NCBI GenBank assembly: GCA_963711735.1
Contig: CAVQFA010000003.1
Coordinates: 470,966 to 534,965, forward strand
Origin: Candidatus Gottesmanbacteria bacterium
Lineage (GTDB): Bacteria; Patescibacteriota; Microgenomatia; UBA10105; UBA927
DNA: 64,000 nucleotides
Direction: 5' to 3'
A model generated the notes under the pieces. That model saw only the letters and a list, made by a program, of their open reading frames with translations, did no database searches and was not told the DNA's origin. Below are positions 2,783 to 32,858 of this stretch, piece by piece. Positions within the stretch are counted from its first letter, which is position 1; each line of letters opens with the position of its first letter. Both the position numbers and the translations under genes were made by a program.

Positions 2783-3157
2783 ATGGCTAAACGTTTATTC
2801 GTCGGGAGTCTCCCGTACGACACAACAAACAATCAACTGGAAGAATTATTCGGTCAAGTTGGACAGGTCGAATCTGTAAATTTGGTTACTGACAGGTATA
2901 CCGGTCAGGGAAAAGGATTTGCATTCGTCGAAATGGTCAACGAAGCTGATGCACAGGCAGCGATCCAAAAACTCAATGGTTACGCAATGGGTGGAAGGAC
3001 TATCGTTGTCAACGAAGCACGTCCGCGCGAAGATCGTCCTAACAGGGGCGGTGGAGGTGGCGGAGGTGATTTCAGAGGCGGAAGAGGCGGTGGAGGTGAT
3101 TTCAGAGGCGGAGGTGGAGGTGGCAGAGGCGGTTTTGACAGAGGAAAGCGCTGGTAA
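2783..3157 (+). CDS. RRM-type RNA-binding protein with Gly/Arg-rich (RGG) C-terminus
   Basis: RNP-2 (LFVGSLP) and RNP-1 (KGFAFVEM) motifs. C-terminal GGGGGGDFRGGRGG repeats. SD AAGGAGGGG upstream. Confidence 0.85.
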   Translation: MAKRLFVGSLPYDTTNNQLEELFGQVGQVESVNLVTDRYTGQGKGFAFVEMVNEADAQAAIQKLNGYAMGGRTIVVNEARPREDRPNRGGGGGGGDFRGGRGGGGDFRGGGGGGRGGFDRGKRW

Positions 3158-3248: not shown

Positions 3249-4301
3249 TTAGTTTCGAAATTGCCAGAGGACATGGTAGTCATTGCTGCAGGGAGGACCT
3301 ATGGCTATCTCAATTGTTCCTGTTCCCATATCGATTACAGTTGAAAATGTAGTGTGCTGTCTATGATCTTTTCCGTCGTGTTTACAGATGGTCATTTCTG
3401 ACGGAATATTCTCAGGTCCGTGATCCCGGAGTATTTTTTTCAGTTGGGGAACGATGGGTTGTTCAGGTACTAAACTGTCGAGTAATATCTGAGCTCGTAT
3501 TAAACGGCCTGTAGAATCACCATCATCCGGTTCTTTATCATATGGTGTCATTTCTTCAGTGTAATGATTTGTGTGAACAATATGTCCGTATTCATCCGGT
3601 TTGACAATGCGATGATTTGTTGCAGATCCCTCGAAACAAACTACATGGTGATAGTCAGCTATTATATTGTTATATGATGAGGCGCGTTCCGGATGGTTTG
3701 CGATAGTCAGAGCCTCCGTTAGATCTTTTGCATCAAGAATTGCTAGCGCAATAATCCATCGTGGTATTCCTTCATCTCTACAGTCATTTTGGGATAACTC
3801 GTTTCCGGAAAGAGCTATCACGTCTCCGTTTGACTTTTTTGTCACGCCGACACTCATAAACGGACCTAAGCCGATTTCCAGAGTGCTGCCCCTATAGGTG
3901 TTCCACGTAACTACTGACACGAATGGAAGAAGTTCCGAACCGGCATCATTATTGTGGGCAATAATGGGATATGGGTTTGTGACAACCAAGTCGGTGCATT
4001 TCTTTATTTCAAAAGTATCATATGTCTCTTCGGAGGCTAAAGCGAAAATATCTTCAAACAGGAGACCTGATCCGGATGCTATTCCTCTCAGCTGATCAAT
4101 GATATGCGGAAAATGCTGTACAGATGCGGGAAGAAACTTCTGCGCGTGATTACGGACAACCTCCCATGGAGTATTAACAGTTAACTCTTTTTGCACCATC
4201 GCTAAAAAATTGTGAAGCATTTCCTGATAGTGTTTTCCTACCTTCAAACCACATTCAAGATCTGACCCTTGTGCGAAAAATGTTTCGATTGAATTACTCA
4301 T
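3249..4301 (-). CDS. hypothetical Ntn-hydrolase-like protein (possible C45 / acyl-CoA:6-APA acyltransferase-like family)
   Basis: 350-aa ORF. The overall composition and a Cys-containing segment (KKCTDLVV) resemble self-processing Ntn hydrolases. The assignment is tentative. Confidence 0.35.
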   Translation of the reverse strand: MSNSIETFFAQGSDLECGLKVGKHYQEMLHNFLAMVQKELTVNTPWEVVRNHAQKFLPASVQHFPHIIDQLRGIASGSGLLFEDIFALASEETYDTFEIKKCTDLVVTNPYPIIAHNNDAGSELLPFVSVVTWNTYRGSTLEIGLGPFMSVGVTKKSNGDVIALSGNELSQNDCRDEGIPRWIIALAILDAKDLTEALTIANHPERASSYNNIIADYHHVVCFEGSATNHRIVKPDEYGHIVHTNHYTEEMTPYDKEPDDGDSTGRLIRAQILLDSLVPEQPIVPQLKKILRDHGPENIPSEMTICKHDGKDHRQHTTFSTVIDMGTGTIEIAIGPPCSNDYHVLWQFRN

Positions 4302-6081: not shown

Positions 6082-6546
6082 TTATTTAGCACTTTTTTGA
6101 TGCATAGCTTTATCTATTAATACAACTTGATTACTTCTCAGCAGTGGCATTTTGTCTTGTGAAAAAAAACCATATGCAGACACTTCCTGACTTGGAGTAA
6201 ATTCGCCACCGATAAATAAACCGGTATAACACATGTCCAGTCGGGAGCCGTTACGATCAGTGCGGGTTTTCAGTGGTGCGTCGACGCTTACGACAAGGCC
6301 CGATTCTTCCTTTATTTCCCTTTCAAGTGCTTCTGCGGGGTGCTCGCCGGATTTTAAATAACCGCCCGGCAGACTCCAGGCGTGTTGCCTATATGTATGA
6401 TTAAAAAGTAATACTTCGTTTTTTTCATTAAAAATAACTCCTGTAACTCCGACTAAAAATTGATTCTGAAAAAGGCGCATAAAAAACAACTGTACACCTT
6501 TTGGTAGGTTTAATATTTTCCATATCTTAGCGAGTAGTGATTTCAC
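6082..6546 (-). CDS. NUDIX hydrolase
   Basis: Nudix box GGYLKSGEHPAEALEREIKEESGL. Confidence 0.8.
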   Translation of the reverse strand: MKSLLAKIWKILNLPKGVQLFFMRLFQNQFLVGVTGVIFNEKNEVLLFNHTYRQHAWSLPGGYLKSGEHPAEALEREIKEESGLVVSVDAPLKTRTDRNGSRLDMCYTGLFIGGEFTPSQEVSAYGFFSQDKMPLLRSNQVVLIDKAMHQKSAK

Positions 6547-6890
6547 AATGCGTTTTTATCTTGAGGTTCATTAGACTTGGAGTCATTTTTGAGTCTCTCG
6601 TTTTCTAACTCCAGCTGGTGAATTCGTTTGGTCAAATCAACAATATCGCTTTTCCCGTGTTTGATCGCTGAATCCTTCCTGTGCATGGAAAAGGCGGTAA
6701 AAATTGAATTGATAAGATATATACAGTACGCTAATCCCAGTCCCGTTAAAAGAGAACCGATGATGACATAAAAGAGCGGAATACCGGAGAGTACGGATGT
6801 TCCAAGGCGTAAAGTTACCAACATCGAGTTATTTTGTGCCAGATACGCCATGATAGCGCCGATAATTAATAAGAAAATAAGTATAGGCAT
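6543..6890 (-). CDS. small membrane protein, LapA/DUF1049-like (two TM helices plus coiled coil)
   Basis: Two N-terminal hydrophobic helices, then a coiled-coil tail. 4-nt overlap with the NUDIX gene. The ATG at 6890 is the likely start. Confidence 0.5.
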   Translation of the reverse strand: MPILIFLLIIGAIMAYLAQNNSMLVTLRLGTSVLSGIPLFYVIIGSLLTGLGLAYCIYLINSIFTAFSMHRKDSAIKHGKSDIVDLTKRIHQLELENERLKNDSKSNEPQDKNAL

Positions 6891-6971
6891 TTCATATAGT
6901 ATACACACTTATCAAAATATTTTCTCATAAAGTATGTTCCAACATCGTCCCCTCTGGGAGCATATTTAATA

Positions 6972-9099: not shown

Positions 9100-10914
9100 A
9101 TGAATGCTAAAACTGAAGTTCCACTAAACACGCATCAGGCTCAATATGTTTCTGAACAATTAACGTCATTTCAACCTGAAAAAGCGAAAGGTACAAATAG
9201 TTTATTAGAATCTCTCTTCAGATCCATAAATACATTAGGAAATGAGTATGCGTTTCTGGCAGCTGCTCAGCTCAACGGTGACTCCGACTATCAAAACATG
9301 ATTGCAGAAAGGGTCATTGCCAAGGAATATCAGCATCTTCAAAAACCAAAGACTATGGACGCATACAATGAAGCGGTTCGGATCGGCAGAGAAACCGAAA
9401 CTGTAAAAAGGGTGTTATTTGCCCGAGTTCTACTGGAACATCCCGAGTCATTCTCTCCGGTCGAACATGAACTATTGGGCGGTGCAGTTATACTTTCCCA
9501 ATACGCGGACACTATATTTTTCGATGAATGGTTGCCAACTATACGTGATAGTGAGATAGGTAAAGCTCTGCATGCACTAGAAGAACAAGCAGCCGGCTCA
9601 TCATTGGGTGTACTACCCGGGACTCCCGATTCAATGCGTTGGTTTACTAGAAAACTCATTGATTCTGACAAACCCATTGAAAAAGATAATATTCAGCTGG
9701 TTCCATATAAAGATGCACTTCCCACTGTTAACAACATGATAGTTTCACTCAGGGAAATGGCTGACAATTTGGAACTGTTAAAACACGAAGGACAGGATGA
9801 TTTCGGGTATGTTGAATATTTCCGGGCATGGGCAGAGTGTCTGGCAGGAGTTGATCCTAATACTCAAAAAGAGAAAGAGGATAATATGTTTATCACCTGG
9901 AGAAGAGTCAATCCTCAAGCGCCTCTGTATTTCGTCGCAATGGCTGAAAATGAATATGAAGATCCAGCTGGAATAGCAATGGTTCCGTCAGTTCGAGCTG
10001 GGGTTTTGGATGAGTCCGATCAAGCACAAAGTCTCAAACTGCAGGAATCAGATTTGAAAAATGTGATCATACAATATACAACAGAACAAAATGTGTTCGG
10101 CGCGGAAAATCTTAAAAGGACAGATACTCACTACCGGATCTGGTCGCTGTTCGGCGGGTCAGATATGCTTTTTGGTATCTCCTCAGAATTTTTACCAAAT
10201 GATCCCGGTATACAAAGTAAAGAAGGAGCAGGGATATTCCCGGACCTTGCCCAGCAGGAAAAAGGGCATTATACACGAGATGTGTTTGCAGAAAAAGTGT
10301 ATCCCGAACCAATTCTCACAATTCTTAGAGATCTAAGATTTTCCTTGCAAGAAGGTTCAATTCATGAAATTCAATCACATGAACTCAATCATTTACCAGC
10401 GGTCACTCTGGAGGCAATTAACGCGATTGGGAAAACCAGAAATCTTCTGGAAGAAGCAAAGGCCACACTGGGAGGTTTAATCGCTCAAATACGAATTCGA
10501 CATAATCAGGATATAGAATTTCAAAAACGGGCAGCTGCAACACTACTTCATGCGGCACCTCGGTATATGGCAATTGACGGAAATCCGACATATCAGGGAT
10601 ATGTCAACGACACGAGGATAGTACTCATTGCAGCAGAAAAAGCAAACATACTAACGTTTAATGAGGCCAACGGATGGAGTCTGGATCTGGACAATACTGA
10701 CAAAATTGTATGGTTTTGGAACTTAATTGAAGAGTTTGTCGCATGGACGTATCACTTGTATGCTGATGTGACAGATGCACCAGTTGAGCAAAGGCCGGGA
10801 ATCGCCCAAAGAAATGCCGGGGAATTGGATACTTGGGTTGGTAAAAAACCTGAACCGGGTAATGATTTAGTAAATGATCGAACTATACGGGCTATAAAAT
10901 CTGCTCTTCAATAA
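9100..10914 (+). CDS. hypothetical cytoplasmic protein (604 aa), cargo gene
   Basis: Long uninterrupted ORF. No SD, no signal peptide and no recognisable domain. Contains a single HELNH (HExxH-like) string. Confidence 0.5.
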   Translation: MNAKTEVPLNTHQAQYVSEQLTSFQPEKAKGTNSLLESLFRSINTLGNEYAFLAAAQLNGDSDYQNMIAERVIAKEYQHLQKPKTMDAYNEAVRIGRETETVKRVLFARVLLEHPESFSPVEHELLGGAVILSQYADTIFFDEWLPTIRDSEIGKALHALEEQAAGSSLGVLPGTPDSMRWFTRKLIDSDKPIEKDNIQLVPYKDALPTVNNMIVSLREMADNLELLKHEGQDDFGYVEYFRAWAECLAGVDPNTQKEKEDNMFITWRRVNPQAPLYFVAMAENEYEDPAGIAMVPSVRAGVLDESDQAQSLKLQESDLKNVIIQYTTEQNVFGAENLKRTDTHYRIWSLFGGSDMLFGISSEFLPNDPGIQSKEGAGIFPDLAQQEKGHYTRDVFAEKVYPEPILTILRDLRFSLQEGSIHEIQSHELNHLPAVTLEAINAIGKTRNLLEEAKATLGGLIAQIRIRHNQDIEFQKRAAATLLHAAPRYMAIDGNPTYQGYVNDTRIVLIAAEKANILTFNEANGWSLDLDNTDKIVWFWNLIEEFVAWTYHLYADVTDAPVEQRPGIAQRNAGELDTWVGKKPEPGNDLVNDRTIRAIKSALQ

Positions 10915-11012
10915 GATAAATCCCTATATATACTCACCTGTGATATTCATCTACGTTGGATCAACGATATTTGATCTTGGAACACGGGTTGTTATAACAG
11001 GAAGAACTTTTA

Positions 11013-11072
11013 ATTTTGTACCCCGTAGCTTATCAAATTAGGACTTATTTTCAATCGATGATTTGATAATAA
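11013..11072 (+). repeat. Degenerate family member (copy C): ttttGTACCCCgtagc followed by a 9-bp-stem hairpin (ttatcaaat...atttgataa)
   Basis: Only the ttttgtacccc word and the upstream TTGGAACAC word are shared, so membership is weak. Confidence 0.25.
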
Positions 11073-11093
11073 TTATTTGGTATCTTCAGTTTG

Positions 11094-11639
11094 TTAATTC
11101 TGAATAGCTTGATCTGCTGGATACTTCCATTGATTTAAGTTTTTTTGAAATACTTGTCCAATATTATTGTGTAAACGAGCAACAACTGTTAGCAAATCTT
11201 CTGGCAAATCAAATGCTAAACCATTTTCAGTACCATAAAGAATTGACCCGTCTTGTGCTGTTACTACTCCGCAATCTAATCCAAAATCACGTTCATCGTT
11301 ACCGGGTATTCGATAAGTAAATTCTGTCTCAGTTGTGTGTGTATTAAAATTAAATAAACCATCAAATGATAATGTATCTGCATCTAAGATTTTTTGATCG
11401 TCTGGTGATAACATCTGTGCTGCCTCTTGAATAATTATTGGATTTAACCAGGCAGCATCAAGATGTGCTGTTAATTCCTTTATACCTTGCTTTCTTTCTG
11501 ATCCTATATCAGATAAATCTGCTTCTTCAAGTCGTGCTTGATCGAGCAATTCAATAGGCAATCCCAATTCTTCCATTCGTGCAATTACCAGGTTTGAGGC
11601 TAGCTCACGAATTTGTTGTGGTATTTCATGATCAGACAT
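11094..11639 (-). CDS. hypothetical acidic protein (181 aa), cargo gene on the opposite strand
   Basis: ORF with a good SD (AAGGAGGAA) immediately upstream on the minus strand (11641-11650). Confidence 0.5.
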   Translation of the reverse strand: MSDHEIPQQIRELASNLVIARMEELGLPIELLDQARLEEADLSDIGSERKQGIKELTAHLDAAWLNPIIIQEAAQMLSPDDQKILDADTLSFDGLFNFNTHTTETEFTYRIPGNDERDFGLDCGVVTAQDGSILYGTENGLAFDLPEDLLTVVARLHNNIGQVFQKNLNQWKYPADQAIQN

Positions 11640-11848
11640 ATTCCTCCTTAGTGAGCAGGAAGGTAATAATAATGATTTTCTTTGAAGAAATCAATGATTA
11701 TAAAAACTAAATCAAGTGCCTAGTTAATTAGACAGCCATCCTTTTCATTAGGGATGGGTTACCAACATAGGGCATAGATTAACTAGATATCTAAGGTTGT
11801 CCTTAAAATATAGAGGCTACTGTAAACGATTGTTGTATCACTTTTATT

Positions 11849-12050
11849 TGGTACCCCCTGCCGGATTGCCGCGATTACTCGACACTCGCCAGCACTAAAG
11901 CTCGTTGACTCGCTAAGTGCTGGTTGGCGAACCTCCGGTTCTCATCTAATGCAGAGTATTGCATAAAAAAATCGGGCGTAAAACCCGATATTTTTATGCA
12001 GTACACGTGTTGGAACCAAATTGGAACATATTTTAATCTCAACCACTTAG
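11849..12050 (+). repeat. Long divergent family member (R0): tRNA-3'-end-like GTACCCCCTGCCGGATT, imperfect hairpin module, palindromic terminator, tail GTACACGTGTTGGAAC...GGAACATATTTT
   Basis: About 75% identical to 13207-13420 over about 200 bp. Hairpin arms differ but keep their pairing (compensatory changes). The terminator is GCATAAAAAAATCGGGCGTAAAACCCGATATTTTTATGC. Confidence 0.6.
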
Positions 12051-12160
12051 ATTTCAATCCGCATTAATAAGAAATTGGTGAATTTGGTTCATAGTATTAA
12101 TTAGATAAATATCTTATAGTTGTTAATGAAAGTATTCATTGATATAATGCTCCAATTATT

Positions 12161-13198
12161 ATGTCGTATGTACCTGAAACTCTTGTATTAACACTTTCCC
12201 GGCAGTGTAATATTGAATGTAGTCACTGTATCGTCGAAGCAGAACCGAGAATATCAGAAGAACTTGATGTCAATATCATTAATTCTTCGCTTAGGCAAGC
12301 AAAGCAAATTGGCATACGAACTGTTTGCATCTATGGTGGAGAACCGTTTCTCCAGACCAGCGGACTTCTTCCTCACACCATACGCCAAACCTTTGCTGAG
12401 GGATTTCCTTTCGTTTCAATCGGAACAAATGGATTTTGGGGAAGAACAGAAGCACAGGCACAAAAAACACTATCCGAGTTGAAAAAGATAGTTAGCTCTT
12501 ATGACGGTATGATTGGTCTTGGCATGTCAGTAGACCGATTCCACCAACCGAGCGTACCACCACAATCAATTGCAAATATAATTTCAGTTCATAGACGTGG
12601 TAATTTCCCAAATATTCGATTAGGAATTCATACGTTCAAAGATCAACCATCATTTGATATTGTCGGACAGGTATATGATCGTGCGATGCGTAATGATTTG
12701 CATATGATCGAGAGTAATGACGCAGGATATATATATCCTGCGTTGAGAGAAGAGTTTATCGAGTTTTCCAGTGAGAACTTTCCCGTCATTAGACGTAATC
12801 TTGATTTACCTGAGGATGCAGATGAAAAGCATATCTTTGAATCACTTGTATTCAATCTTGATGTTTCACATGCAATGCGCGATGTGATGTTACCAAAAAT
12901 AATCGCACGTCAGATGGATATCGGTAACGGATTCGAAAATTACTTGATCTTTCCCAATCATACATATTTATTAGATTTTATTGTTGAGGAAAAAGTACTG
13001 AATGCCGGAAGGGCAAGGATTTCAGGTAATTTAGAAACTGCCCGCGATATGGACTCAGATACTGACTATTTGGTCATCGCTCCAAATGGTCAAGCATATG
13101 CCTATCCTGCTCATATTACCGCAGAATCAGGAATTATTATCGGAAATAAATCACTAAAACAGGTTGTAAGAGAAGTTGAAAACAAATGGTTCTATTAG
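12161..13198 (+). CDS. radical SAM domain protein (CX3CX2C motif C-N-I-E-C-S-H-C); cargo gene
   Basis: Canonical CxxxCxxC cluster at residues 16-23, followed by a glycine-rich SAM-binding segment (CIYGGEPF). No SPASM/twitch Cys cluster. Confidence 0.7.
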   Translation: MSYVPETLVLTLSRQCNIECSHCIVEAEPRISEELDVNIINSSLRQAKQIGIRTVCIYGGEPFLQTSGLLPHTIRQTFAEGFPFVSIGTNGFWGRTEAQAQKTLSELKKIVSSYDGMIGLGMSVDRFHQPSVPPQSIANIISVHRRGNFPNIRLGIHTFKDQPSFDIVGQVYDRAMRNDLHMIESNDAGYIYPALREEFIEFSSENFPVIRRNLDLPEDADEKHIFESLVFNLDVSHAMRDVMLPKIIARQMDIGNGFENYLIFPNHTYLLDFIVEEKVLNAGRARISGNLETARDMDSDTDYLVIAPNGQAYAYPAHITAESGIIIGNKSLKQVVREVENKWFY

Positions 13199-13206
13199 TT
13201 TAAAAA

Positions 13207-13368
13207 GTACCCCCAGTCGGATTCACTGCAAAGCTACGCTTTGAGTGCTCGCCAGCAGTATGACTCGTAAATATGAATTTACTCGTTAACTGCTGGTTAG
13301 CGAACCTTCGGTTCTCACCGACATGGGCATGAAAAAAGCACCCATTAGGGTGCTTTTTTCATGAGTAC
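13207..13368 (+). repeat. Repeat R1, a 162-bp unit 100% identical to 14266-14427. Its first 18 nt (GTACCCCCAGTCGGATTC) match the 3' end of the tRNA-Glu gene exactly
   Basis: Exact identity read from the sequence. Contains an imperfect hairpin (CGCCAGCAGT...ACTGCTGG) and a perfect 16-bp-stem hairpin CATGAAAAAAGCACCC-atta-GGGTGCTTTTTTCATG. A degenerate tail GTACACCTGTTGGGACGATGTTGGAACATATTT follows to about 13420. Confidence 0.9.
13328..13363. terminator. Perfect 16-bp-stem, 4-nt-loop hairpin with A-tract and T-tract arms (bidirectional intrinsic terminator) inside repeat R1
   Basis: CATGAAAAAAGCACCC ATTA GGGTGCTTTTTTCATG. Confidence 0.7.
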
Positions 13369-13471
13369 ACCTGTTGGGACGATGTTGGAACATATTTAGC
13401 CTCAAATATCTAAGTAATATATTTTTTTACGAGAGTATTATTCGGAAAATCAAATATGTTACACTGAATAT

Positions 13472-14260
13472 ATGAGTGAATCTGACATAAAAGTTAATAT
13501 TCAGCCGTCAGAAATTCAGCCTCAATCCGAACAGCCAAAGGAAGCCCGCGCACCAGTCCCCGGAATGAATAAAATAAAGTCATCTCATCTTCAGATAGCA
13601 TTGATGGCACTTCTTCTTATATCGATCACTACAGCAGGATATCTTGGTTATAAGTATTACGTATTCAATAATACATTAACTGTTACGCCGCCACAGCCTG
13701 AACAACCAGTTAAAACCATACCAACAATTACCCCTATTCTGACACCAGTATTTTCAATATCAGTAAATCCCGCTACAGGTCAGAATTTATATTCAAACAC
13801 AACATATGGGTTTAGTTTTGAATATCCTAAGGATTTTGTTATTGAAAATCAAAACCCCCCTAGTATTGGAGTAATGGGTAACAATATTGTCGGGCTCATC
13901 CGAAGATCTATGTACTTCCTGCCTAACTACCTACAAAATATAAGTAGGTATAATGAATATCGAAATCGGTTCACCAATATAAAAAAGCTAAATGTCGGAG
14001 AGTCGTACACATATGAACCAGTAGATACTTTTTTTGAGACGACAACCAGAATAGCTGATATGAAAATCGGAGGAATAACTTCTTATGTTTTTGATGTTCC
14101 TAAGGTTTGGGAAGGGGAAGGACCGTATAGAGAAATATATTTACCCAAAGGTGATGATTATATACAGATATTTTATACGAATTCTAACGATAAAGAAGAT
14201 CCGATTGATTACGTAAAAGGCTTTAACCAGATTCTATCCACTTTTAAATTTACTTATTGA
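13472..14260 (+). CDS. hypothetical membrane-anchored protein (262 aa), cargo gene flanked by the perfect repeats
   Basis: A hydrophobic helix at about residue 40 and a Pro-rich linker. No motif. Confidence 0.5.
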   Translation: MSESDIKVNIQPSEIQPQSEQPKEARAPVPGMNKIKSSHLQIALMALLLISITTAGYLGYKYYVFNNTLTVTPPQPEQPVKTIPTITPILTPVFSISVNPATGQNLYSNTTYGFSFEYPKDFVIENQNPPSIGVMGNNIVGLIRRSMYFLPNYLQNISRYNEYRNRFTNIKKLNVGESYTYEPVDTFFETTTRIADMKIGGITSYVFDVPKVWEGEGPYREIYLPKGDDYIQIFYTNSNDKEDPIDYVKGFNQILSTFKFTY

Positions 14261-14265
14261 TTTTT

Positions 14266-14427
14266 GTACCCCCAGTCGGATTCACTGCAAAGCTACGCTT
14301 TGAGTGCTCGCCAGCAGTATGACTCGTAAATATGAATTTACTCGTTAACTGCTGGTTAGCGAACCTTCGGTTCTCACCGACATGGGCATGAAAAAAGCAC
14401 CCATTAGGGTGCTTTTTTCATGAGTAC
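14266..14427 (+). repeat. Repeat R2, a 162-bp unit identical to R1 that abuts the tRNA-Glu gene and overlaps its 3' end by 4 nt; it includes the tRNA's terminator
   Basis: 100% identical to 13207-13368. Its terminal GTAC is the start of the genuine tRNA 3' segment. Confidence 0.9.
14388..14423. terminator. Perfect hairpin terminator immediately downstream of tRNA-Glu (minus strand), also able to act on plus-strand transcripts
   Basis: Same sequence as 13328-13363. Confidence 0.7.
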
Positions 14428-14498
14428 CCCCAGTCGGATTCGAACCGACGGTCTACACGTTGAGAACGTGTCGTCCTAGGCCGCTAGACGATGGGGGC
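14425..14498 (-). tRNA. tRNA-Glu, anticodon CUC
   Basis: Reverse complement GCCCCCAUCGUCUAGCGGCCUAGGACGACACGUUCUCAACGUGUAGACCGUCGGUUCGAAUCCGACUGGGGGUA folds as a cloverleaf (GUCU D-stem, ACACG/CGUGU anticodon stem, loop UUCUCAA, T-arm GUCGG-UUCGAAU-CCGAC). Close to E. coli tRNA-Glu. CCA is not encoded, and pair 1-72 is G.U. Confidence 0.85.
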
Positions 14499-14610
14499 GT
14501 TCCATACTAGTATACCTTATATTATATATGAGAAAAAGGGCTATAGCCGGCGGGTTTACCGGGGAAAAGATGAGTGGGTCATTAAATGTAATAATAATTG
14601 CAGGTTAGAC

Positions 14611-14639
14611 TTGACACAACAATCGAAATTGTCTACACT
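14611..14639 (+). promoter_or_regulatory. candidate sigma70 promoter TTGACA-17 bp-TACACT upstream of greA
   Basis: Exact -35 hexamer, a 17-bp spacer and a TAnnnT -10. Followed by an approximately 85-nt leader containing a CCCTGgataGGGTA hairpin. Confidence 0.4.
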
Positions 14640-14727
14640 TAAAAAGTAATATTCATACCCTGGATAGGGTAAAGAATTTATTTTACCTCCCTGACATAAT
14701 TATGAAAGGGGAGATTTTTTTGACCAT

Positions 14728-15192: not shown

Positions 15193-15208
15193 TCAGACTG
15201 ATTACAAC

Positions 15209-15240
15209 AAAACCCCGCACATGCGGGGTTCATTTTTTTA
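15209..15240 (+). terminator. Rho-independent terminator after greA (AACCCCGCAcatGCGGGGTT plus T7)
   Basis: GC-rich stem followed by a T-run. Confidence 0.7.
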
Positions 15241-15426
15241 AATGGATAGTTAGCGGGCAAATTCATATTTGCGGGCTTACTGACCATTTATCCGGCACAT
15301 AGGTGCCGGAAACAATATGTAATAACGTAAGCATATATACACACAGTGGTGTATATAGGAATCAATATTAATACTTTCATGTATAGGAAGTATTGATGGT
15401 GTTAATATACAATATAGGAACTACGT

Positions 15427-17742
15427 ATGTTCTGGGCAGACAGAATTGCAAAAGAAATCATTGGCAGCGGACTCTATCGTCCTTTTTGGGCGGATGATAT
15501 GTTCACCCCCTCAGGTTATGCACACATTGGTTCATTGCGTGGTCCCTTAGTCCATGACGTTATCTACCGTGCAATAACCGATGCAGGACAAAAAGCAGTG
15601 TCGACGTATGTTTTCAACGACTTTGATCCTGTGGACGGATTACCGTCTGAGCTTATGCATCTGTCCGATGAGCTTGGCAAACCGCTCCGCCTGGCGAAAT
15701 CTCCTGACGGCGGATACGCGAACTTCGCAGCGTACTTTGCACATGATTTTCAGACAGTGCTTCGGTCGCTCGGAGTCGGAGCGGAATTTCTCTCCAGCTG
15801 GGATATGTATCACGAAGGGAAATTTGACGGTGTTATCCGTACTGCCTTGGATCATGCACCCCTCATCCAGGACATCTATCAGCGTGTGAGCGGGAGCAAA
15901 AAACGCGAAAAAGGATGGCTTCCTCTTCAGGTTATCTGCGAGAAATGCGGGAAACTCGGAACAACGAGGGTGCATGATTGGGACGGGACGTTTGTTACAT
16001 ACACATGTGAAGAATCCATGGTTTCATGGGCAAAAGGATGTGGGTTTACCGGGAAAACCAGTCCGTTTACGGACCCGGATGATCCGAAACATCATCCCGG
16101 CAAGCTGCCGTGGAAAGTAGACTGGCCGGCACACTGGAGGGTCCTTGGCGTGACGATTGAAGGAGCAGGTAAAGACCATTCATCCGCGGGAGGTTCCCGG
16201 GATATCGCGAAGGTTCAGTGCAAAGAAGTCTTTGAAATACCGGAACCGTACAATCTGCCATACGAATTCTTTCTCATTGGAGGCAGGAAAATGTCCTCTT
16301 CTAAGGGGATCGGTCTCAAAGCTCGGGAGCTAACGGAAATCCTTCCGCCTCAATTAGGCAGATTTCTTTTCGTCCGCACGGATTACCACCAGGCAATAGA
16401 ATTTGATCCGGTCGGTACAACGGCAATTCCTGATTTGTTTGATGAGTACGACCGGTGTTTCACGGCATATGTAAACGGAGGCGATGAAAATCTGTCCCGT
16501 GCATTTGTATTATCACAAATCGGTAAAGTCCCGGAGAAATCTCCGGTTTTCATCCCGAGATTTCGCGACATTACCAATGTGCTTCAAACCCCTCACGCAG
16601 ATGCGGGTAAAATATTTACACAAAAAGCCGGACGGGTACTTACCGGACAGGAAGAAGAGATACTCAGGGAACGTATCTCATATGCACGTCTTTGGCTTTC
16701 TAAATTTGCACCTGAGGAAATGCTCACATCAATGACGAAAGAAATTCCCGATGATGTGAGAACTTTATCAGGGACACAGAGAGATTTTCTTACCCGTGTT
16801 GCCGATATGGTGAAGGATGCACAAAATCCTGAGAAACTACAGGAAGATTTATATGCACTCACGAAGGAAATGAAGATGAGCACAAAGGATGCTTTTTCTT
16901 CACTTTATATAGCGCTTATCGGGAGGAAGTACGGTCCCAAAGCAGCATGGTTTCTCCTCCAATATCCCAAAGATACCGTTGTGACACGCTTACGTGATGC
17001 AGCGAAACACCGGGAAGAAAAAGTTAAGCACGCTCCGGAGGATTTTGAAGTGATTGTTAAACCCGAATTTTTTACGATAGATCCTGCAGTGACGAAGTCG
17101 TACCCTACCGTTTCAATCGGAATTGCATTCATATCAAATGTCCACATAACTCTCAAAAATAATGAGCTGGAAAAGGAAAAAGCAAAAACTGTGGAACAAA
17201 TCCGCACCAATACTCTTGAAGAACTGGGAAGCTCTCCGGAGATAGTAAGCTACAGGAAGCTCTATAAACAAATGGGTATCGATTGGCATTCCCGGAGACC
17301 CTCTCCCGAGGCGCTTGTGCGGAGAATCATACAGGGCAAAGGACTCTATGAGGTAAACACGTGTGTGGATGCATATAATCTGTCAGTGGTGAAAAATCTG
17401 GTTTCCGTCGGTGCATTTGATGCGGACTCTATAAAGTTTCCGACCGTCTTGCGGTTTGCCAAAAGCGGTGATGAGATTCTTCTCCACGGCGACACCAAAC
17501 CGACAGCGTATACATCCGAAGAGCTGGCATACTATGATAAGTCCGGAGGATACAACATTGATTTTAACTACCGTGATGCCAAACGTACGCTCGTCACGGT
17601 TCATACGAAGAATATCTGGATAAACGTTGACGGTATATATGACATTTCAAAAGAGGCAGTATGGCATACGCTTCTCTCTGCTATAACGGGAATTATGAAA
17701 TACTGCGGCGGCACGCTTGAGTGGAAAGGGTTAGTGACATAA
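15427..17742 (+). CDS. lysK: class I lysyl-tRNA synthetase (archaeal-type LysRS) fused to a C-terminal B3/4 domain
   Basis: HIGH-type motif (YAHIGS) and KMSKS-type motif (KMSSSKG). The C-terminal roughly 210 aa (nt about 17100-17742) match the B3/4 domain (PSPEALVRRIIQG...VNTCVDAYNLSVV...GAFDADSI). Confidence 0.8.
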   Translation: MFWADRIAKEIIGSGLYRPFWADDMFTPSGYAHIGSLRGPLVHDVIYRAITDAGQKAVSTYVFNDFDPVDGLPSELMHLSDELGKPLRLAKSPDGGYANFAAYFAHDFQTVLRSLGVGAEFLSSWDMYHEGKFDGVIRTALDHAPLIQDIYQRVSGSKKREKGWLPLQVICEKCGKLGTTRVHDWDGTFVTYTCEESMVSWAKGCGFTGKTSPFTDPDDPKHHPGKLPWKVDWPAHWRVLGVTIEGAGKDHSSAGGSRDIAKVQCKEVFEIPEPYNLPYEFFLIGGRKMSSSKGIGLKARELTEILPPQLGRFLFVRTDYHQAIEFDPVGTTAIPDLFDEYDRCFTAYVNGGDENLSRAFVLSQIGKVPEKSPVFIPRFRDITNVLQTPHADAGKIFTQKAGRVLTGQEEEILRERISYARLWLSKFAPEEMLTSMTKEIPDDVRTLSGTQRDFLTRVADMVKDAQNPEKLQEDLYALTKEMKMSTKDAFSSLYIALIGRKYGPKAAWFLLQYPKDTVVTRLRDAAKHREEKVKHAPEDFEVIVKPEFFTIDPAVTKSYPTVSIGIAFISNVHITLKNNELEKEKAKTVEQIRTNTLEELGSSPEIVSYRKLYKQMGIDWHSRRPSPEALVRRIIQGKGLYEVNTCVDAYNLSVVKNLVSVGAFDADSIKFPTVLRFAKSGDEILLHGDTKPTAYTSEELAYYDKSGGYNIDFNYRDAKRTLVTVHTKNIWINVDGIYDISKEAVWHTLLSAITGIMKYCGGTLEWKGLVT

Positions 17743-23323: not shown

Positions 23324-23911
23324 ATGGATTATTTGGATATTGATTTTTATTCTTTACACAGACAGTTGCCTCTTACGTTTATAAGTTCAGACAAGCAGAT
23401 CGCCACATTCACGATTCTCGGTGACGTTGAATTTACCCAGTTAGCCGGTATGTTATTGGAGGATAAGCTTAAAGAGAAAAAGATAACACCGGATTGTTTT
23501 GTCGGCCCCGGAACAAATATTCTCTGTTTTGTTCATCATATGGCAGTGCGGTACGGACATAAGCGGTACGTGATTCTCAGAAAATCAATCAGAAACTATA
23601 TGACATCTCCTGAAGTCCAGCTTCCGTGGCGCAATGCTCCAAAACATGCCCGGAAACTCGTCATGAACGGATCAGACTGTACGTATCTGAAAGGAAAGAG
23701 CGTTGTACTTATTGATGACGTCATATCAACAGGAACTACCATCGACATGCTTGAAAAACTTATGGAGAAAATCGGTGCTCAGGTACTGGCTAAATGTGCA
23801 ATATTCAAGCAAAGTGACCGTTACAAAGGACCGCTCATTCATCTTTCGACACTGCCTATATTTGTAACTACCTCAGAAGGCAAAAAAGAACTCTTGACGC
23901 AGGAGTATTAA
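23324..23911 (+). CDS. phosphoribosyltransferase-domain protein (type I PRTase, PRPP-binding VVLIDDVISTGTT)
   Basis: PRPP-binding motif. Specificity (purine salvage or other) not assignable. Confidence 0.6.
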   Translation: MDYLDIDFYSLHRQLPLTFISSDKQIATFTILGDVEFTQLAGMLLEDKLKEKKITPDCFVGPGTNILCFVHHMAVRYGHKRYVILRKSIRNYMTSPEVQLPWRNAPKHARKLVMNGSDCTYLKGKSVVLIDDVISTGTTIDMLEKLMEKIGAQVLAKCAIFKQSDRYKGPLIHLSTLPIFVTTSEGKKELLTQEY

Positions 23912-24032
23912 TAGTATACGGTGAAATTACTAGCGCAATAGTCTGACATTGCCGCAGACACGCATACTACCCGAAGGCAAATACATATGTTGATACGTAT
24001 TAACCGTAATTCGACATAGTTTTTCTTTTTTT

Positions 24033-24066
24033 ACCCCCGATTTTTTACGGGGGTTTTCATTTTTTA
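24033..24066 (+). terminator. Intrinsic terminator or attenuator hairpin (ACCCCCG-attttta-CGGGGGT plus T-tract) ending 1-2 nt before the purF ATG
   Basis: 7-bp GC stem followed by TTTCATTTTTTAT. No SD between the hairpin and the purF start. Confidence 0.55.
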
Positions 24067-24067
24067 T

Positions 24068-25474
24068 ATGAGTTGTGAACAATTTGGTGAGAAATGCGGT
24101 GTATTCGGTGTTTATTCACCTCATTCAAGTGCAGCCCGTTTGGTACATCCCGGAATATTTGCTCTTCAGCACCGTGGGCAGGAAAGTACGGGAATAGGAA
24201 CGTCAAACGGACAGGATTTATTCCTGCACAGAGGAATGGGTTTAGTCACGCACGTATATTCGGAACCGGTTATAGATGCCCTTCCGGGGTTTATCGGAAT
24301 TGGCCATAACAGATATTCCACATCGCAGGGTTCGACTTTGGAGCATTCGCAGCCGATTATGCGAAGTGACGGCATAGTTGCACTTGCTCATAACGGTAAT
24401 TTACCAAGTACGGTAATCTTAGAAAATTTTCTGAAGGAAAAAGGATTTCCAACTCAAAAAAGCAACGATTCCGAAATGATGACGGATGTCATCGGATACC
24501 ACCTGAGGAGAGGAGCATCCCTGGAGCAGGCAATAACGGATTCTTATCCTTTATTTACAGGAGCTTTTTCGTTGGTAGTTATGACCAAAGATAAAATTGC
24601 CGCAGTAAGGGATCCTAAAGGTATCCGTCCTTTAGTGTACGGAAAATTAAACGGAACTGGATATGTGTTTGCATCAGAAACCTGTGCTCTTGACGCCGTA
24701 CGCGCAGAGTGTATCGGGGATGTTCTGCCCGGAGAAATGATTGTAATAGACGATTCAGGAGAACACCATTATCAAATAGATCCCGGAGAACAGAAGCTCG
24801 ACATATTTGAATTAGTATATTTTGCCCGTCCTGACAGTGAAATCATGGGTATGAGCGTATATGTGATCAGAGAAAATTTTGGTAAAATTCTCGCGTCTGA
24901 ATCTCCGGTTGCCGCAGATATTGTCATTCCGGTTCCCGATTCAGCAATCCCGGCAGCTATAGGTTTTTCTGAAGCGTCGAAAATCCCATATGAGGAAGCG
25001 ATAATAAAAAACCGCTATATTCATCGCACATTTATCCAGCCGCATGAGCGTTTGCGTTCTCACGACGTGGAAGTGAAGCTCAATCCTATACGGGCGGTTA
25101 TAAAAAATAAGCCGGTTGTACTTATTGATGATTCAATTGTCCGCGGAACAACCATGGGTCCGATTGTCGCAATGCTCCGGCGCGCCGGAGCATCGGAAGT
25201 TCACGTAAGAATTAGCTCTCCTCCGGTCTTATACCCCGATTTTTACGGAATAGATACACCCAATCAAAGTAAGCTCATTGCCGCCCGACTGAGTATTCCG
25301 GACATTTGTCAGCAAATCGGTGCTGATTCGCTGGCGTATTTATCCTACAGGGGAATGATACAGGCAACCGGACTACCGGAGGAAGTATTTTCATCATCCT
25401 GTTTCACGGGCATATATCCTATAGATATCAGAGAAAGAGAAGGAGAAATTATCAGATTTTCAAAGACTGTATGA
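24068..25474 (+). CDS. purF: amidophosphoribosyltransferase
   Basis: N-terminal Cys nucleophile (KCGVFG), glutaminase domain and C-terminal PRTase domain. Confidence 0.9.
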   Translation: MSCEQFGEKCGVFGVYSPHSSAARLVHPGIFALQHRGQESTGIGTSNGQDLFLHRGMGLVTHVYSEPVIDALPGFIGIGHNRYSTSQGSTLEHSQPIMRSDGIVALAHNGNLPSTVILENFLKEKGFPTQKSNDSEMMTDVIGYHLRRGASLEQAITDSYPLFTGAFSLVVMTKDKIAAVRDPKGIRPLVYGKLNGTGYVFASETCALDAVRAECIGDVLPGEMIVIDDSGEHHYQIDPGEQKLDIFELVYFARPDSEIMGMSVYVIRENFGKILASESPVAADIVIPVPDSAIPAAIGFSEASKIPYEEAIIKNRYIHRTFIQPHERLRSHDVEVKLNPIRAVIKNKPVVLIDDSIVRGTTMGPIVAMLRRAGASEVHVRISSPPVLYPDFYGIDTPNQSKLIAARLSIPDICQQIGADSLAYLSYRGMIQATGLPEEVFSSSCFTGIYPIDIREREGEIIRFSKTV

Positions 25475-26232
25475 GGGAACGATTACGGTTGGCAATATTT
25501 ATTTCCGGAGGTGGTTCTACGATGGATGCAATCGTGAGGGCAACGCAGCAGGATGGGCAGTTGAATAATCGTATAGAACCGGTCGTTGTTATTTCAAATA
25601 AACCGGATGCTTCCGGGATCTCCAAAGCACAAGCATTAGATATTCCGGTAAGGGTAGTTGACAGGAAAGATTTTGAGAAAGGTGAAAAAGGACTCGAACA
25701 ATTCGGATGGGCGATTCTGGCGTTTTTGAGGGAATTCTCCGCAGATTTTATAAGTCAAAACAGCTGGTTGGCGCTTACTCCCGCCAACGTGATTCAGGAG
25801 TATGAAGGAAAAATTTTTAACCAGCATCCCGGGCCATTGGATCCTGATCATAAAGGTTCTGACGGTTTGCCTTTACATTTCGGAGGTAAGGGCATGCATG
25901 GGTTGGCTGTGCATGCGGCTGTTTTGGAATTTCAGCGCATAAGTTCAAGAAGTTTTCCTGCGGAAGCTACAATTCATCGGGTTAATCCGGTTGTTGATGA
26001 AGGAGTTGTGGTGGCCCGAAACCAGGTAAAAGTTTTTTCCGGTGATTCACCGGAGAGTTTGGCAAGACGGGTATTACCCTATGAACACGAGCTGCAGATT
26101 GAATTTTGGAAAGGGGTATCAGACGGCGTAGGTACTGAATATCACCGTCCGGAACATCTTATTCATGAACACGAAGAAAATTTTCTTAAACAGGCAATAA
26201 TTTACGCCAGAAGTGCGTACCCAAACGGATAG
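25471..26232 (+). CDS. purN: phosphoribosylglycinamide formyltransferase (long form with C-terminal extension)
   Basis: LAIFISGGGSTMDAIV N-terminus and formyl-transferase fold. 4-nt overlap with purF. Confidence 0.8.
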   Translation: MRERLRLAIFISGGGSTMDAIVRATQQDGQLNNRIEPVVVISNKPDASGISKAQALDIPVRVVDRKDFEKGEKGLEQFGWAILAFLREFSADFISQNSWLALTPANVIQEYEGKIFNQHPGPLDPDHKGSDGLPLHFGGKGMHGLAVHAAVLEFQRISSRSFPAEATIHRVNPVVDEGVVVARNQVKVFSGDSPESLARRVLPYEHELQIEFWKGVSDGVGTEYHRPEHLIHEHEENFLKQAIIYARSAYPNG

Positions 26233-26242
26233 ATGATAATGT

Positions 26243-27811
26243 ATGAAAAAACAAAATAAGAAGATTAAATACGCCTTAATCAGTGTCTATGACAAATCCG
26301 GAATTATTGAACTGGCAAAAGGTATTGTTGCTGCAGGGTATCAAATCATATCAACCGGCGGTACATATAAATTTCTGTCTGAGGGCGGAATATCCGCAGT
26401 TCCCATAAAAGAAATTACGGGAAACCCGGAAGCTTTCGGCGGAAGAATGAAAACGATAAGTTTTCAGGTGGAAGGCGGAATCCTGTATAACCGTTCGAAT
26501 CCCGGTGACATACGTGAAGCGGAACATTTGCATGTACCCAGGATTGATATAGTTGTATGCAACCTTTATCCGTTTGCCAAAACCATAGAGAAAAAAGGTG
26601 TGACGCTTAGCGAGGCAGTTGAAAATATTGATGTCGGCGGACCGACAATGATACGGTCTGCTGCCAAAAATTTTGCACACGTTTTAGTGATAACGGATCC
26701 CGAAGATTACCGGCTTATTATAGATAAACTTGAGACAGGAGGATTGAACCGGGTATTTCGTCAGAAAATGGCTGCCAAAGCTTTCGGGCACCTGGCTTTC
26801 TATGACTCACAAATAAACGGATATTTAGGATCTGAAAAAAATTCTGATGAAATCACGCTGCCTCTGAAAAAAAGAACCGTTTTGCGATACGGAGATAATC
26901 CTGACCAGAAAGCCGGTATATATTTGATTCCGCATCAGAAATCATGGCTTTGGGATTTACAAAGATTATCCGGCAGAGAATTATCCGCAACAAATGTCAC
27001 GGATATTGATGCCGGGATCAGGGCAGTTCAGATATTTACCGAACCTGCGGCAGTAGTTGTCAAGCATAATAATCCCTGCGGTATGGCTCTCGGTAATTCA
27101 GATTCTGTTTCTCTTGTGAGGGCTCTTGAAGCAGATTCAGAGTCCGCCTTTGGCGGCGTGGTTGTTATGAATAAACCAATGAGTTTCAAATCAGCAGAGG
27201 AGTTAGCCCTATTTAAAGAGTCCGGAAAAGGCCAGATGGATATTATCGCGGTACCGGAAATACACCCTGAAGCACTCATATTGTTGCAGCAAGTCAGAAA
27301 AACCACGGGAGTGTATACATTCGGTCATATCCCGAAAGCCGATACCACCGGACAACTCATTCGCTTCATCGCCGGTGGTGCTGTTGTTCAGACGGTGAAT
27401 AATCCTGAGAGCAGTTTTCCCGATTGGGAAACGGTAACCGGGAGTAAACCTACAAAAAAACAAGTTGAACAGATGCATATTGCATGGAAATTTATATCCA
27501 GGATCCGCTCAAACACCGTTGCGGTTATAGACCAAACGCTCCCTATGACGCGCGGTATAGGAAGCGGACAGACTTCGCGGGTACTTGCAGTAAAAATAGC
27601 ATTGGAGCGGGCAGGAAAATATACAAAGAACGGAATTTTAGCCAGTGACAGCTTCTTTCCGTTTGATGACTCGGTGAAACTGGCTGTGAAGTATGGGATT
27701 GGAGCGATTGTCCAGCAGGGAGGATCAATCCGTGATGCGGATTCTATAAAGGCGGCCAATCGCGCCGGAATTCCGATGATATTTACACACCAAAGGGTAT
27801 TTTGGCACTGA
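26243..27811 (+). CDS. purH: bifunctional AICAR formyltransferase/IMP cyclohydrolase
   Basis: MGS-like N-terminal domain (ALISVYDKSGI) and AICARFT domain. Typical length of 522 aa. Confidence 0.9.
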   Translation: MKKQNKKIKYALISVYDKSGIIELAKGIVAAGYQIISTGGTYKFLSEGGISAVPIKEITGNPEAFGGRMKTISFQVEGGILYNRSNPGDIREAEHLHVPRIDIVVCNLYPFAKTIEKKGVTLSEAVENIDVGGPTMIRSAAKNFAHVLVITDPEDYRLIIDKLETGGLNRVFRQKMAAKAFGHLAFYDSQINGYLGSEKNSDEITLPLKKRTVLRYGDNPDQKAGIYLIPHQKSWLWDLQRLSGRELSATNVTDIDAGIRAVQIFTEPAAVVVKHNNPCGMALGNSDSVSLVRALEADSESAFGGVVVMNKPMSFKSAEELALFKESGKGQMDIIAVPEIHPEALILLQQVRKTTGVYTFGHIPKADTTGQLIRFIAGGAVVQTVNNPESSFPDWETVTGSKPTKKQVEQMHIAWKFISRIRSNTVAVIDQTLPMTRGIGSGQTSRVLAVKIALERAGKYTKNGILASDSFFPFDDSVKLAVKYGIGAIVQQGGSIRDADSIKAANRAGIPMIFTHQRVFWH

Positions 27812-27814
27812 TGT

Positions 27815-29074
27815 ATGAGTGCAGAACATAAAATATTGGTAATCGGTTCAGGTGGCAGGGAAGATGCAATCGGAAGGAAATTGATGCGTGAAGCAAGGCT
27901 TTTTTTTGCACCGGGAAACGGCGGGACGGCAGGCATCGGAAAGAATATTGATATTGGTGTAAATGATGTAGACAAGCTGTCCCGGTTTGCATCCGACAAC
28001 GTGATTGATTTAACCATAGTCGGACCGGAAGGACCATTATCAGAAGGAATCGTTGACGCGTTTGAGGAAGACGGTCTTGCTATCTTCGGTCCTTCAAAAG
28101 CTGCAGCCCGGCTCGAGTCAAGTAAACTCTGGAGTTCAAAGTTTATGGTAAGACACTCCATACCCTCTGCACAATTCCGGGAATTTCAAAATCCTGAAGA
28201 TGCGCTTCATTTTGTCAACCGGGTAGGATTTAAAAACACCGTCATTAAAGCCGACGGTTTATGTGCGGGCAAGGGTGTGGTTCTGCCGAATTCCACAGGG
28301 GAAGCAGAAACAGCAATACTGGGAATGTTGTCGGGTAAGGATTTTGGCACAGCCGGGAAAACAATTCTTATACAGGAGCGGTTAAAAGGCCCGGAAATAT
28401 CAGTAATGGCTATAAGCGACGGAAAAGTAGTTGTTCCCCTTCTGCCGGCGCGCGATCATAAGCGCGTCTTCGACGGGGATAAGGGACCCAATACCGGCGG
28501 AATGGGTGCGTACGCACCGGTGCCGGATGTAACGACCGGAATGCTGCAGGATATATATGAGCACATACTTCTTCCGACGGTATCAGGAATGTATGAAGAA
28601 GGAATACCGTATAAAGGGGTTTTGTATGCCGGGCTTATGCTTACAGCGGACGGTCCGAAAGTCCTTGAGTATAATTGCCGTCCCGGAGATCCGGAGACCC
28701 AGCCTCTCATGACCTTATTGCAGTCAGAATTGGCACCGGTTTTATTATCCTCGATTAAAGGAACATTGAAAAAATCACAGATCAAATTCAGGTCCGGTTA
28801 TTCTGTCTGTGTGGTTTTAACATCAGGCGGATATCCGGGTAGGTATGCATCCGGTGAGGTTGTTCACGGTGCAACCGGACAATATGAGAATACCGAAATA
28901 ATCCATGCCGGTACTTCTTACAGAGACGGATTGCTGGTTACATGCGGCGGAAGGGTATTAGGTGTGACGTCGTATGGTAAAACCCTAAAGGAAGCTGCCC
29001 GGAGAGCATATTCGGTAATCGGAACAAGCGTATATTTTAAAGGTATGCATTACCGGTCTGATATTGCCGCATAA
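27815..29074 (+). CDS. purD: phosphoribosylamine-glycine ligase
   Basis: KILVIGSGGREDAIG N-terminus and ATP-grasp fold. Confidence 0.9.
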   Translation: MSAEHKILVIGSGGREDAIGRKLMREARLFFAPGNGGTAGIGKNIDIGVNDVDKLSRFASDNVIDLTIVGPEGPLSEGIVDAFEEDGLAIFGPSKAAARLESSKLWSSKFMVRHSIPSAQFREFQNPEDALHFVNRVGFKNTVIKADGLCAGKGVVLPNSTGEAETAILGMLSGKDFGTAGKTILIQERLKGPEISVMAISDGKVVVPLLPARDHKRVFDGDKGPNTGGMGAYAPVPDVTTGMLQDIYEHILLPTVSGMYEEGIPYKGVLYAGLMLTADGPKVLEYNCRPGDPETQPLMTLLQSELAPVLLSSIKGTLKKSQIKFRSGYSVCVVLTSGGYPGRYASGEVVHGATGQYENTEIIHAGTSYRDGLLVTCGGRVLGVTSYGKTLKEAARRAYSVIGTSVYFKGMHYRSDIAA

Positions 29075-29076
29075 AT

Positions 29077-32043: not shown

Positions 32044-32044
32044 T

Positions 32045-32848: not shown

Positions 32849-32858
32849 GGAGGCATGT

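Follow-up and report, generated by a model that had tools for sequence, protein, structure and literature searches.

Structured tRNA-tail modules and single genes on the 3' side of a tRNA-Glu gene in a Gottesmanbacteria bacterium

What kind of element places two perfect copies of a 162-bp repeat beside a tRNA gene, with a single gene between them? We addressed this question for a tRNA-Glu locus in a stretch of 64,000 nucleotides from Candidatus Gottesmanbacteria bacterium, a member of the Candidate Phyla Radiation (CPR; GenBank assembly GCA_963711735.1, contig CAVQFA010000003.1, positions 470,966 to 534,965). This whole stretch is referred to below as the window and its coordinates are used throughout. 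A sequence-only reading of the window had compared the repeats with the attL/attR geometry of an integrase-less, tRNA-integrating element. Our analysis shows that the 162-bp repeat is a member of a conserved family of structured modules found at tRNA-Glu in Gottesmanbacteria, beyond an attachment (att) core with an arbitrary flank. Three modules lie head-to-tail on the 3' side of the tRNA gene, with single accessory genes between them. We propose that the locus is a recombination hot spot with a tRNA-anchored array of small cassettes, built and trimmed by recombination at the tRNA tail or at the module, and put the probability of this reading at about 0.5. CPR bacteria, or Patescibacteria, have tiny genomes with few recognised mobile elements, and their gain of accessory genes is poorly understood.

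The tRNA-Glu(CTC) gene is located on the minus strand at 14424-14498 (ARAGORN; Rfam RF00005, tRNA, 60.8 bits) and is the sole tRNA gene of the window. The two repeats, here named modules A (13207-13368) and B (14266-14427), both on the plus strand, are 100% identical over 162 nt and 99% identical over an extended 165 nt. Both start with GTACCCCCAGTCGGATTC, which on the opposite strand forms the final 18 nt of the tRNA-Glu gene (plus-strand positions 14424-14441). This 18-nt core covers the 3' half of the T-loop, the 3' strand of the T-stem, the 3' strand of the acceptor stem, the discriminator base and one C. The exact 18-mer occurs at 13207, 14266 and 14424, with a copy carrying three mismatches at 11851, so that four matches were observed in the window against 0.05 expected by chance. 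The final GTAC of module B (14424-14427) doubles as the first four nucleotides of the 3' end of the tRNA gene. Between the two modules an open reading frame (ORF) at 13472-14260 encodes a 262-aa protein with one hydrophobic segment at its N-terminus. On these points the sequence-only reading was correct, having described the perfect identity, the exact tail copy at the start of each repeat, the GTAC shared with the tRNA and the membrane-anchored ORF that the repeats bracket. It had overlooked a third module and a conserved motif of ~30 nt that follows two of the three, and the layout it gave (tail copy, module, gene, tail copy, module, tRNA) is present but belongs to a longer array, of three units or more.

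This third, diverged module, C, lies at 11851-12004 on the plus strand and is 63% identical to module A. Its parts follow the same order as in A and B, with a core variant, GTACCCCCTGCCGGATTG, the conserved blocks CTCGCCAGCA...GCTGGTTRGCGAACCTYCGGTTCTCA, a hairpin flanked by A/T runs and a terminal GTAC. Along the plus strand the region therefore reads as a 181-aa gene on the minus strand, module C, motif Y', a radical-SAM gene, module A, motif Y, the 262-aa gene, module B and tRNA-Glu. To the right of the tRNA lie the core genes greA, class I lysS, ham1, serS and secA, a purine operon and ruvABC. The GC content is 0.31-0.41 over ~4-14.5 kb, compared with 0.43-0.47 in the core genes to the right.

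What accompanies the tail copy in each module? Module A is predicted to fold as a four-way junction on either strand (minimum free energy -51.8 kcal/mol; z = -7.0 against shuffled sequences). Its core (13207-13224) contributes the tRNA-tail copy CCCAGTCGG to the closing helix P1 (13212-13220 with 13318-13327), where it pairs with a distal anti-core, CCGAC-A-TGGG, through 9 bp and one bulged base. P1 encloses the hairpin P2 (13225-13246), the long hairpin P3 (13247-13301) and the short hairpin P4 (13302-13314), which has the form GAACC-loop-GGTTC. A terminator-like hairpin, a 16-bp palindrome with a GC core and flanks of A6 and T6, stands 3' of P1 at 13328-13363 and is followed by GTAC at 13365-13368. 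Module B has the same parts, with its core at 14266-14283 and the hairpin at 14387-14422. In module C, P3 and P4 are also present and the hairpin lies at 11956-12004. On both strands the module hairpin is shaped like an intrinsic terminator, which points to a putative two-way terminator. A consensus terminator scan flagged the copy in C only, on both strands; those in A and B were missed because the stem runs through the A/T runs and hides the T-tail.

Conservation and covariation were assessed on four distinct module sequences, those of A/B, C and two related contigs, L019 and L028, which are described below. The four types are 63-71% identical to each other, with A and C at 63% within one genome and the modules of different genomes at 64-71%; the nearest relative of module A is the module that follows a radical-SAM gene in L028. 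P1 is found in all four types in a varying register; where A has GTCGG/CCGAC, L028 has GCCGG/CCGGC. At P2, A, L019 and L028 each form a hairpin, but with unrelated sequences. Compensatory changes were observed in P3, with three of its 11 pairs altered on both sides and 97.7% of cells paired. The covariation score for P3 was reached in 3 of 500 shuffles, the slid controls all collapsed, and loop sequences are conserved. G-U pairs (3 versus 1) slightly favour the plus strand as the folded strand but are not decisive. The four sequences thus support a conserved fold, for which RNA and single-stranded DNA are indistinguishable. We built a covariance model, R1, from the four module types, which scored A and B at 116.5 bits and C at 109 bits. 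Across the window and 14 related loci (173 kb) it matched only A, B, C and the modules of L019 and L028. We also considered a decayed tRNA-Glu pseudogene as the origin of the body and found no support for it, as the core-free body aligned locally to the remaining tRNA sequence no better than shuffled sequences did (p = 0.08-0.7).

A second stable fold was observed in the spacer between greA and lysS (15193-15330; -52.9 kcal/mol, z = -8.06). Within it a hairpin at 15248-15273 lies in the inverted orientation; its inner ~34 nt are close to the P3 apex of A/B (CGCAAATATGAATTTGC versus CGTAAATATGAATTTAC) and its outer stem is wholly different from that of P3 yet complementary. The window spacer has no Rfam family match, and the greA-lysS spacers of relatives are much shorter.

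Database searches with the module returned no known family. In Rfam no family matched at the gathering score, nor at E<=5 over 10900-14700, and weak matches to RNAI and Atu_C8 stem from the terminator-like hairpin. In GTDB genomes and JGI metagenomes a pattern made from the conserved block GCTGGTTNGCGAACCNNNGGTTC gave only chance matches, none of which extended past the pattern; the pattern is too strict, because L019 and L028 differ within the block. Pattern scans of IMG/VR found nothing, and a BLASTN search of 11851-14427 against phage and plasmid collections gave no match. For the radical-SAM protein, the relatives in viral contigs amounted to one match, at 30% identity.

Is the module itself a discrete unit at the tRNA? 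Comparison of GreA with its homologs likewise assigns the window to Candidatus Gottesmanbacteria. Relatives, whose loci we refer to by L numbers, retain the synteny tRNA-Glu(CTC) (minus strand), greA, lysS, ham1, serS and secA, but vary in sequence on the tRNA's 3' side. The module is absent from this side in L016, L021 and L024. In L019 (GreA 84% identical) the sequence 'cgtta' is followed by the exact 18-nt core, a homologous body of 149 nt with an A/T-flanked hairpin, and the tRNA with the core again. In L020, whose GreA protein is identical to that of L019, '...aaaaaacgtta' runs straight into the tRNA. Since the two are 99.74% identical in DNA over 1172 nt downstream, a bare module with one core (167 nt) forms a presence/absence polymorphism, bounded exactly at the two cores. 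In A, B and L019 alike, the match to the tRNA breaks off at one and the same position of the T-loop. Work by Williams in 2002 is said to place att sites of tyrosine integrases at the T-loop and 3' end of tRNA genes, and the boundary seen here fits this description.

A larger unit is indicated by L028 (GreA 76% identical). Here the order is Lon, a beta-lactamase-like gene (minus strand), a radical-SAM homolog, a gap of 16 nt, the module, tRNA-Glu, a GIY-YIG gene (minus strand) and greA. The radical-SAM homolog is 56% identical to the product of 12161-13198, and the module has the core GTACCCCCAGCCGGATTG, a P3 like that of module A and a truncated right end. In L021 and L016 the order is Lon, beta-lactamase-like (minus strand), tRNA-Glu and greA. 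As the site is occupied in L028 and unoccupied in L021 and L016, the radical-SAM gene and its downstream module form a linked unit at the same tRNA. The pair is thus found on the 3' side of this tRNA in two distant genomes, with an empty site at the level of synteny only. In this part of L028 (3411-3728) the tRNA-Glu has acceptor and T stems of GGCGCG type, and the GIY-YIG endonuclease gene stands between tRNA and greA. Taken together, the tRNA stems of L028, the GIY-YIG gene and the truncated module suggest a local replacement of the tRNA gene.

The contigs L018, L022 and L023, from close relatives, begin 35, 26 and 0 nt from the tRNA 3' end, which fits heterogeneity or repeats at this position, and L018 opens with an A/T-flanked hairpin resembling the right end of a module.

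Two cargo genes lie between the modules on the plus strand. The first (12161-13198) encodes a 345-aa radical-SAM protein that carries a CX3CX2C motif and whose best named match, a YydG-like family, scores far under the cut-off of that family. The second is the 262-aa gene at 13472-14260, whose membrane-anchored product has no family assignment. Distal to module C, the 181-aa ORF at 11094-11639 (minus strand), with no function assigned, is possibly an older cargo gene. No defence-system or named-family assignment was obtained for the cargo proteins. Further out, at 11018-11029 on the plus strand, the sequence GTACCCCGTAGC weakly resembles the tRNA end of L016, GTACCCCGTGCC, and could be an older decayed tail copy bounding a further unit of the array, or a chance match.

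Immediately after module A lies motif Y (13369-13397, plus strand; ACCTGTTGGGACGATGTTGGAACATATTT), and after module C its counterpart Y' (12005-12033, plus strand; ACGTGTTGGAACCAAATTGGAACATATTT). The ~30 nt common to both 3' sides read GTAC followed by ACSTGTTGGRAC..TTGGAACATATTT. Motif Y holds two TGTTGGRAC direct repeats spaced 11 bp apart, which look like a site for a DNA-binding protein. A third copy, GGGACGATGTTGGAACATACTT (motif GGGACGATGTTGGAACATAYTT), occupies 6928-6951 of the minus strand, immediately upstream of the gene 6543-6908 on that strand, and has no adjacent module. We considered motif Y as a degenerate core and found this unconvincing, with 8-9 of 16 positions identical. In L015, the contig that encodes the only homolog of the 262-aa protein, a promoter-like sequence of ~35 nt, cttgactttaaatcttsyttaagaaatacttaaag, precedes successive genes (2880-2915 and 3608-3645).

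How might such an array arise? In the cassette array that we propose, each module has three parts. The 18-nt copy of the tRNA-Glu 3' end begins in the 3' half of the T-loop and reaches the acceptor end. In the predicted fold of the body, P1 closes a three- or four-way junction around the variable P2, the long conserved P3 and usually P4. The hairpin would terminate transcription both ways, that of the rebuilt tRNA on one strand and that of the convergent cargo gene on the other. DNA carrying a module, motif Y and a gene would recombine with the resident core or module, either site-specifically, by a recombinase encoded outside the window with crossover in or beside the T-loop, or by homologous recombination over the 162-bp module. 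The direct repeats would also permit the exact loss of units. The newest event would be that of the 1059-bp unit with the 262-aa gene. We infer the direction of gain or loss, the mechanism and enzyme of recombination, and the terminator function. Modules A and C are only 63% identical, as low as modules of different genomes, which indicates independent origins rather than amplification in situ. Their low identity, together with the linkage of the radical-SAM gene to its module, argues for the import of separate units. The perfect identity of A and B suggests a single local event of very recent date, or gene conversion, as the sequence-only reading had reasonably supposed.

Tail-identical direct repeats, one of them inside the intact tRNA, flank the insert, as would be expected of a tRNA-integrating element, and the same is seen in L019. 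The attL/attR geometry put forward by the sequence-only reading therefore stands as far as the tail repeats 3' of the tRNA, the T-loop boundary and the core-bounded indel of L019 and L020 are concerned. Site-specific integration of the 1.06-kb unit would be one possible route to it, and recombination of the RecA type across the 162-bp homology would give the same product. The absence of an integrase that it described agrees with our Pfam scans of 60 window ORFs (at least 110 aa; about ten more, mostly overlapping larger genes, were left out), which found no recombinase, transposase, Y1/HUH or reverse-transcriptase domain and, among these ORFs, no integrase in or next to the element.

This lack of a candidate enzyme also counts against the array that we favour, and it is one of several such points. 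Deletion across a pair of 18-nt repeats would account equally well for the indel between L019 and L020. The resident tRNA-Glu of L028 differs in its acceptor and T stems and the module core is no copy of it, and therefore the simple rule that the core matches the resident tRNA fails there. The radical-SAM homolog of L026 has no module. The sole homolog of the 262-aa protein, P0009 (54% identical), lies in an unrelated context without module or tRNA. No empty site for the 1059-bp unit itself was seen among the relatives examined, and no circular form was observed in assembled sequence, where the junctions of circle and tandem coincide. The number of distinct module sequences known is only four. 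Finally, a role as an att site alone leaves the conserved fold of the body unexplained.

Is the duplication real? A perfect repeat of 162 bp is hard for short reads, and the assembly could in principle have been built from a single chromosomal module copy, or from a free 1059-bp circle (module, Y and the 262-aa gene) threaded into the path. The junctions of such a circle, gene to core and body and body to Y, are identical to those of the integrated tandem, and because they are shared a free circle is inseparable from the tandem by sequence alone. However, a contig assembled by Logan (k=31) from ERR12037368 encodes an identical GreA at 331-795, with the next gene at 1030. Judged from these gene offsets, it starts 330 nt before greA at window position 14398, which lies within the repeat, exactly 30 nt (k-1) from its right end at 14427. 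A de Bruijn unitig would have to break here if the 31-mer 14397-14427 had two continuations, ...C into the tRNA and ...A into motif Y (ACCTG), which implies that both are present in the reads. For any k >18, all four junction types would need read support. Module C and the independent assemblies of L019 and L028 share the architecture, and together with the Logan contig they make an assembly artefact unlikely; we consider this explanation very improbable. [quoted passage not shown] The imperfect inverted repeat is there, 9 bp with a bulge in A, and the bare unit of ~167 bp does behave as an indel between L019 and L020. A target duplication of 18 nt would nevertheless exceed the range of transposases, the inverted repeats enclose neither the hairpin nor GTAC, R1 finds copies only at tRNA-Glu and none dispersed in the window and related loci, and the scanned ORFs include no transposase. 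Other candidates were rejected. A diversity-generating retroelement does not agree with two repeats that are 100% identical and both begin past a stop codon (13198 and 14260), nor with the lack of a reverse-transcriptase domain in the scanned ORFs. The 18-mer as a retroviral-type primer-binding site is contradicted by the lack of both a reverse transcriptase and, in A and B, the CCA complement. For a retron, an IS110 bridge RNA and IS200/605, the matching proteins are all absent.

Two further explanations give the fold a purpose. The first draws on the tyrT/tyrV locus of Escherichia coli K-12, where units of 178 bp, 95% identical, lie head-to-tail 3' of the tRNA and each ends, in the sense of the tRNA, in 19 nt that repeat the 3' end of tRNA-Tyr. 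These units, which yield RtT RNA, score 133-137 bits against the Rfam family RtT (RF00391), in whose consensus a closing helix between the tail copy AUCCUUCCCC and an upstream anti-core, GGGGAAGGAU, encloses several hairpins. The module could likewise be a repeat acting mainly as RNA, possibly in processing, termination, stabilisation of mRNA 3' ends or regulation, which would multiply or contract through unequal crossing-over between tail copies, the intervening genes being incidental. The shared closure of tail copy on anti-core around hairpins, the compensatory changes in P3, the conserved loop sequences, and the position of each module directly after the stop codon of a convergent gene or adjoining the tRNA all fit this view. 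Against it, neither RF00391 nor any other Rfam family matches even at E<=5, A and C are far more diverged than the E. coli units, protein genes lie between units, and the body outside the core is not significantly similar to the remainder of the tRNA. Co-transcription with the tRNA is unlikely, given the strong two-way hairpin, with its U-tracts, that separates the module from tRNA-Glu. On balance we find this explanation rather unlikely. The other, to which we give little credence, is an array of the integron type, in which the module would be an attC analogue, P1 in folded single-stranded DNA would mimic the tRNA 3' end, and a host tyrosine recombinase would insert circles of ORF and module at the tRNA acting as 'attI'. 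One ORF with a 3' structured site, repeated in an array anchored at one end, is what would be expected, as are cassettes without an integrase, core and anti-core pairing in all four module types, with a bulge in A, and a structure kept while the sequence diverged to ~63-71% identity. Yet neither IntI nor any other recombinase domain was found in the scanned window ORFs, direct reading of the sequence shows no GTTRRRY/RYYYAAC boxes, the fold is a multi-way junction and not a single imperfect hairpin, and the four available sequences fit folded RNA as well as they fit single-stranded DNA.

Some features of the window stand apart from the array. The lysS gene at 15427-17742 encodes a class I lysyl-tRNA synthetase (LysRS) fused to a C-terminal B3_4 domain. 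The syntenic lysS encodes a class II LysRS in L016, L019 and L021, and class I with B3_4 in L018 and L022, a difference that reads as non-orthologous replacement within the lineage. An apparently complete operon for de novo purine synthesis (23324-38157; PurF-like, PurN, PurH, PurD, PurL, PurQ, PurA, PurB, PurE, PurC and PurM) is notable for a CPR genome. A 124-aa protein encoded at 2783-3157 contains an RNA-recognition motif of eukaryote type (RRM_1, E = 1.2e-25).

Where does the locus stand among known systems? It lies in a CPR bacterium, between two known kinds, the tRNA-anchored accretion arrays and the tRNA-linked repeats of the RtT type. If the units are truly mobile, they would form a compact gene-exchange device at one tRNA gene, and R1 provides a search model for such hot spots in metagenomes. 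Small gene units without a recombinase of their own are known from Xer-dependent modules (integrative mobile elements exploiting Xer, or IMEXs, and the pdif modules of Acinetobacter), which are ~1 kb in length and carry sites for a host enzyme, dif-like for XerC/D. The likeness is an analogy only, as no dif-like site was recognised here.

With integron attC sites and clusters of attC sites lacking an integrase (CALIN) the array shares a repeated single ORF with a 3' structured, site-like element, and a structure more conserved than its sequence. It differs in having no IntI, attI or Pc, in being headed by a tRNA gene and in folding as a junction instead of a single hairpin; on direct reading, neither GTTAGCG nor GTTGGCG agrees with GTTRRRY, and a RYYYAAC partner is absent. 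In a broader and improbable version of this comparison, tRNA-tail modules including the E. coli RtT repeats would be the recombination sites of a tRNA-anchored, integron-like system, where the folded strand mimics the acceptor/T-arm end through P1 and a host recombinase moves single-gene circles. If so, genome-reduced CPR bacteria would exchange genes without an integrase in the cassette.

The accretion arrays at tRNA or tmRNA genes offer a closer precedent for the cargo arrangement. Elements that accrete in tandem, with partial tRNA copies between them, have been described (tycheposon preprint), and integrase-less units flanked by att-like repeats exist as cis-mobilizable elements (CIMEs; CIME literature). 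As in tycheposons, in the accretion of CIMEs and ICEs (integrative and conjugative elements), as well as in the ssrA islands of Dehalococcoides, repeats of the 3' part of a tRNA punctuate the cargo here, with stacking at one tRNA and a variable region of low GC. In contrast, the units here are 0.16-1.4 kb long with zero or one gene and with no integrase in the scanned window ORFs, and every tail copy comes with a conserved structured body of ~140 nt.

The locus also resembles the RtT repeats. Both have units of ~130-180 nt, head-to-tail 3' of a tRNA, with a tail copy of 18-19 nt from the 3' half of the T-loop, and in both a helix of tail copy and anti-core closes around hairpins. They differ in that the module has neither a sequence nor a covariance-model match to RF00391, is found at tRNA-Glu in a CPR bacterium, is separated from the tRNA by a two-way terminator-like hairpin, and occurs in units split by opposite-strand protein genes, with copies 63% identical compared with 95% in E. 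coli. This likeness to the long-known and unexplained RtT/tyrT repeats of E. coli suggests that 'tRNA-linked repeats' may make up a broader class that shares an origin or a function.

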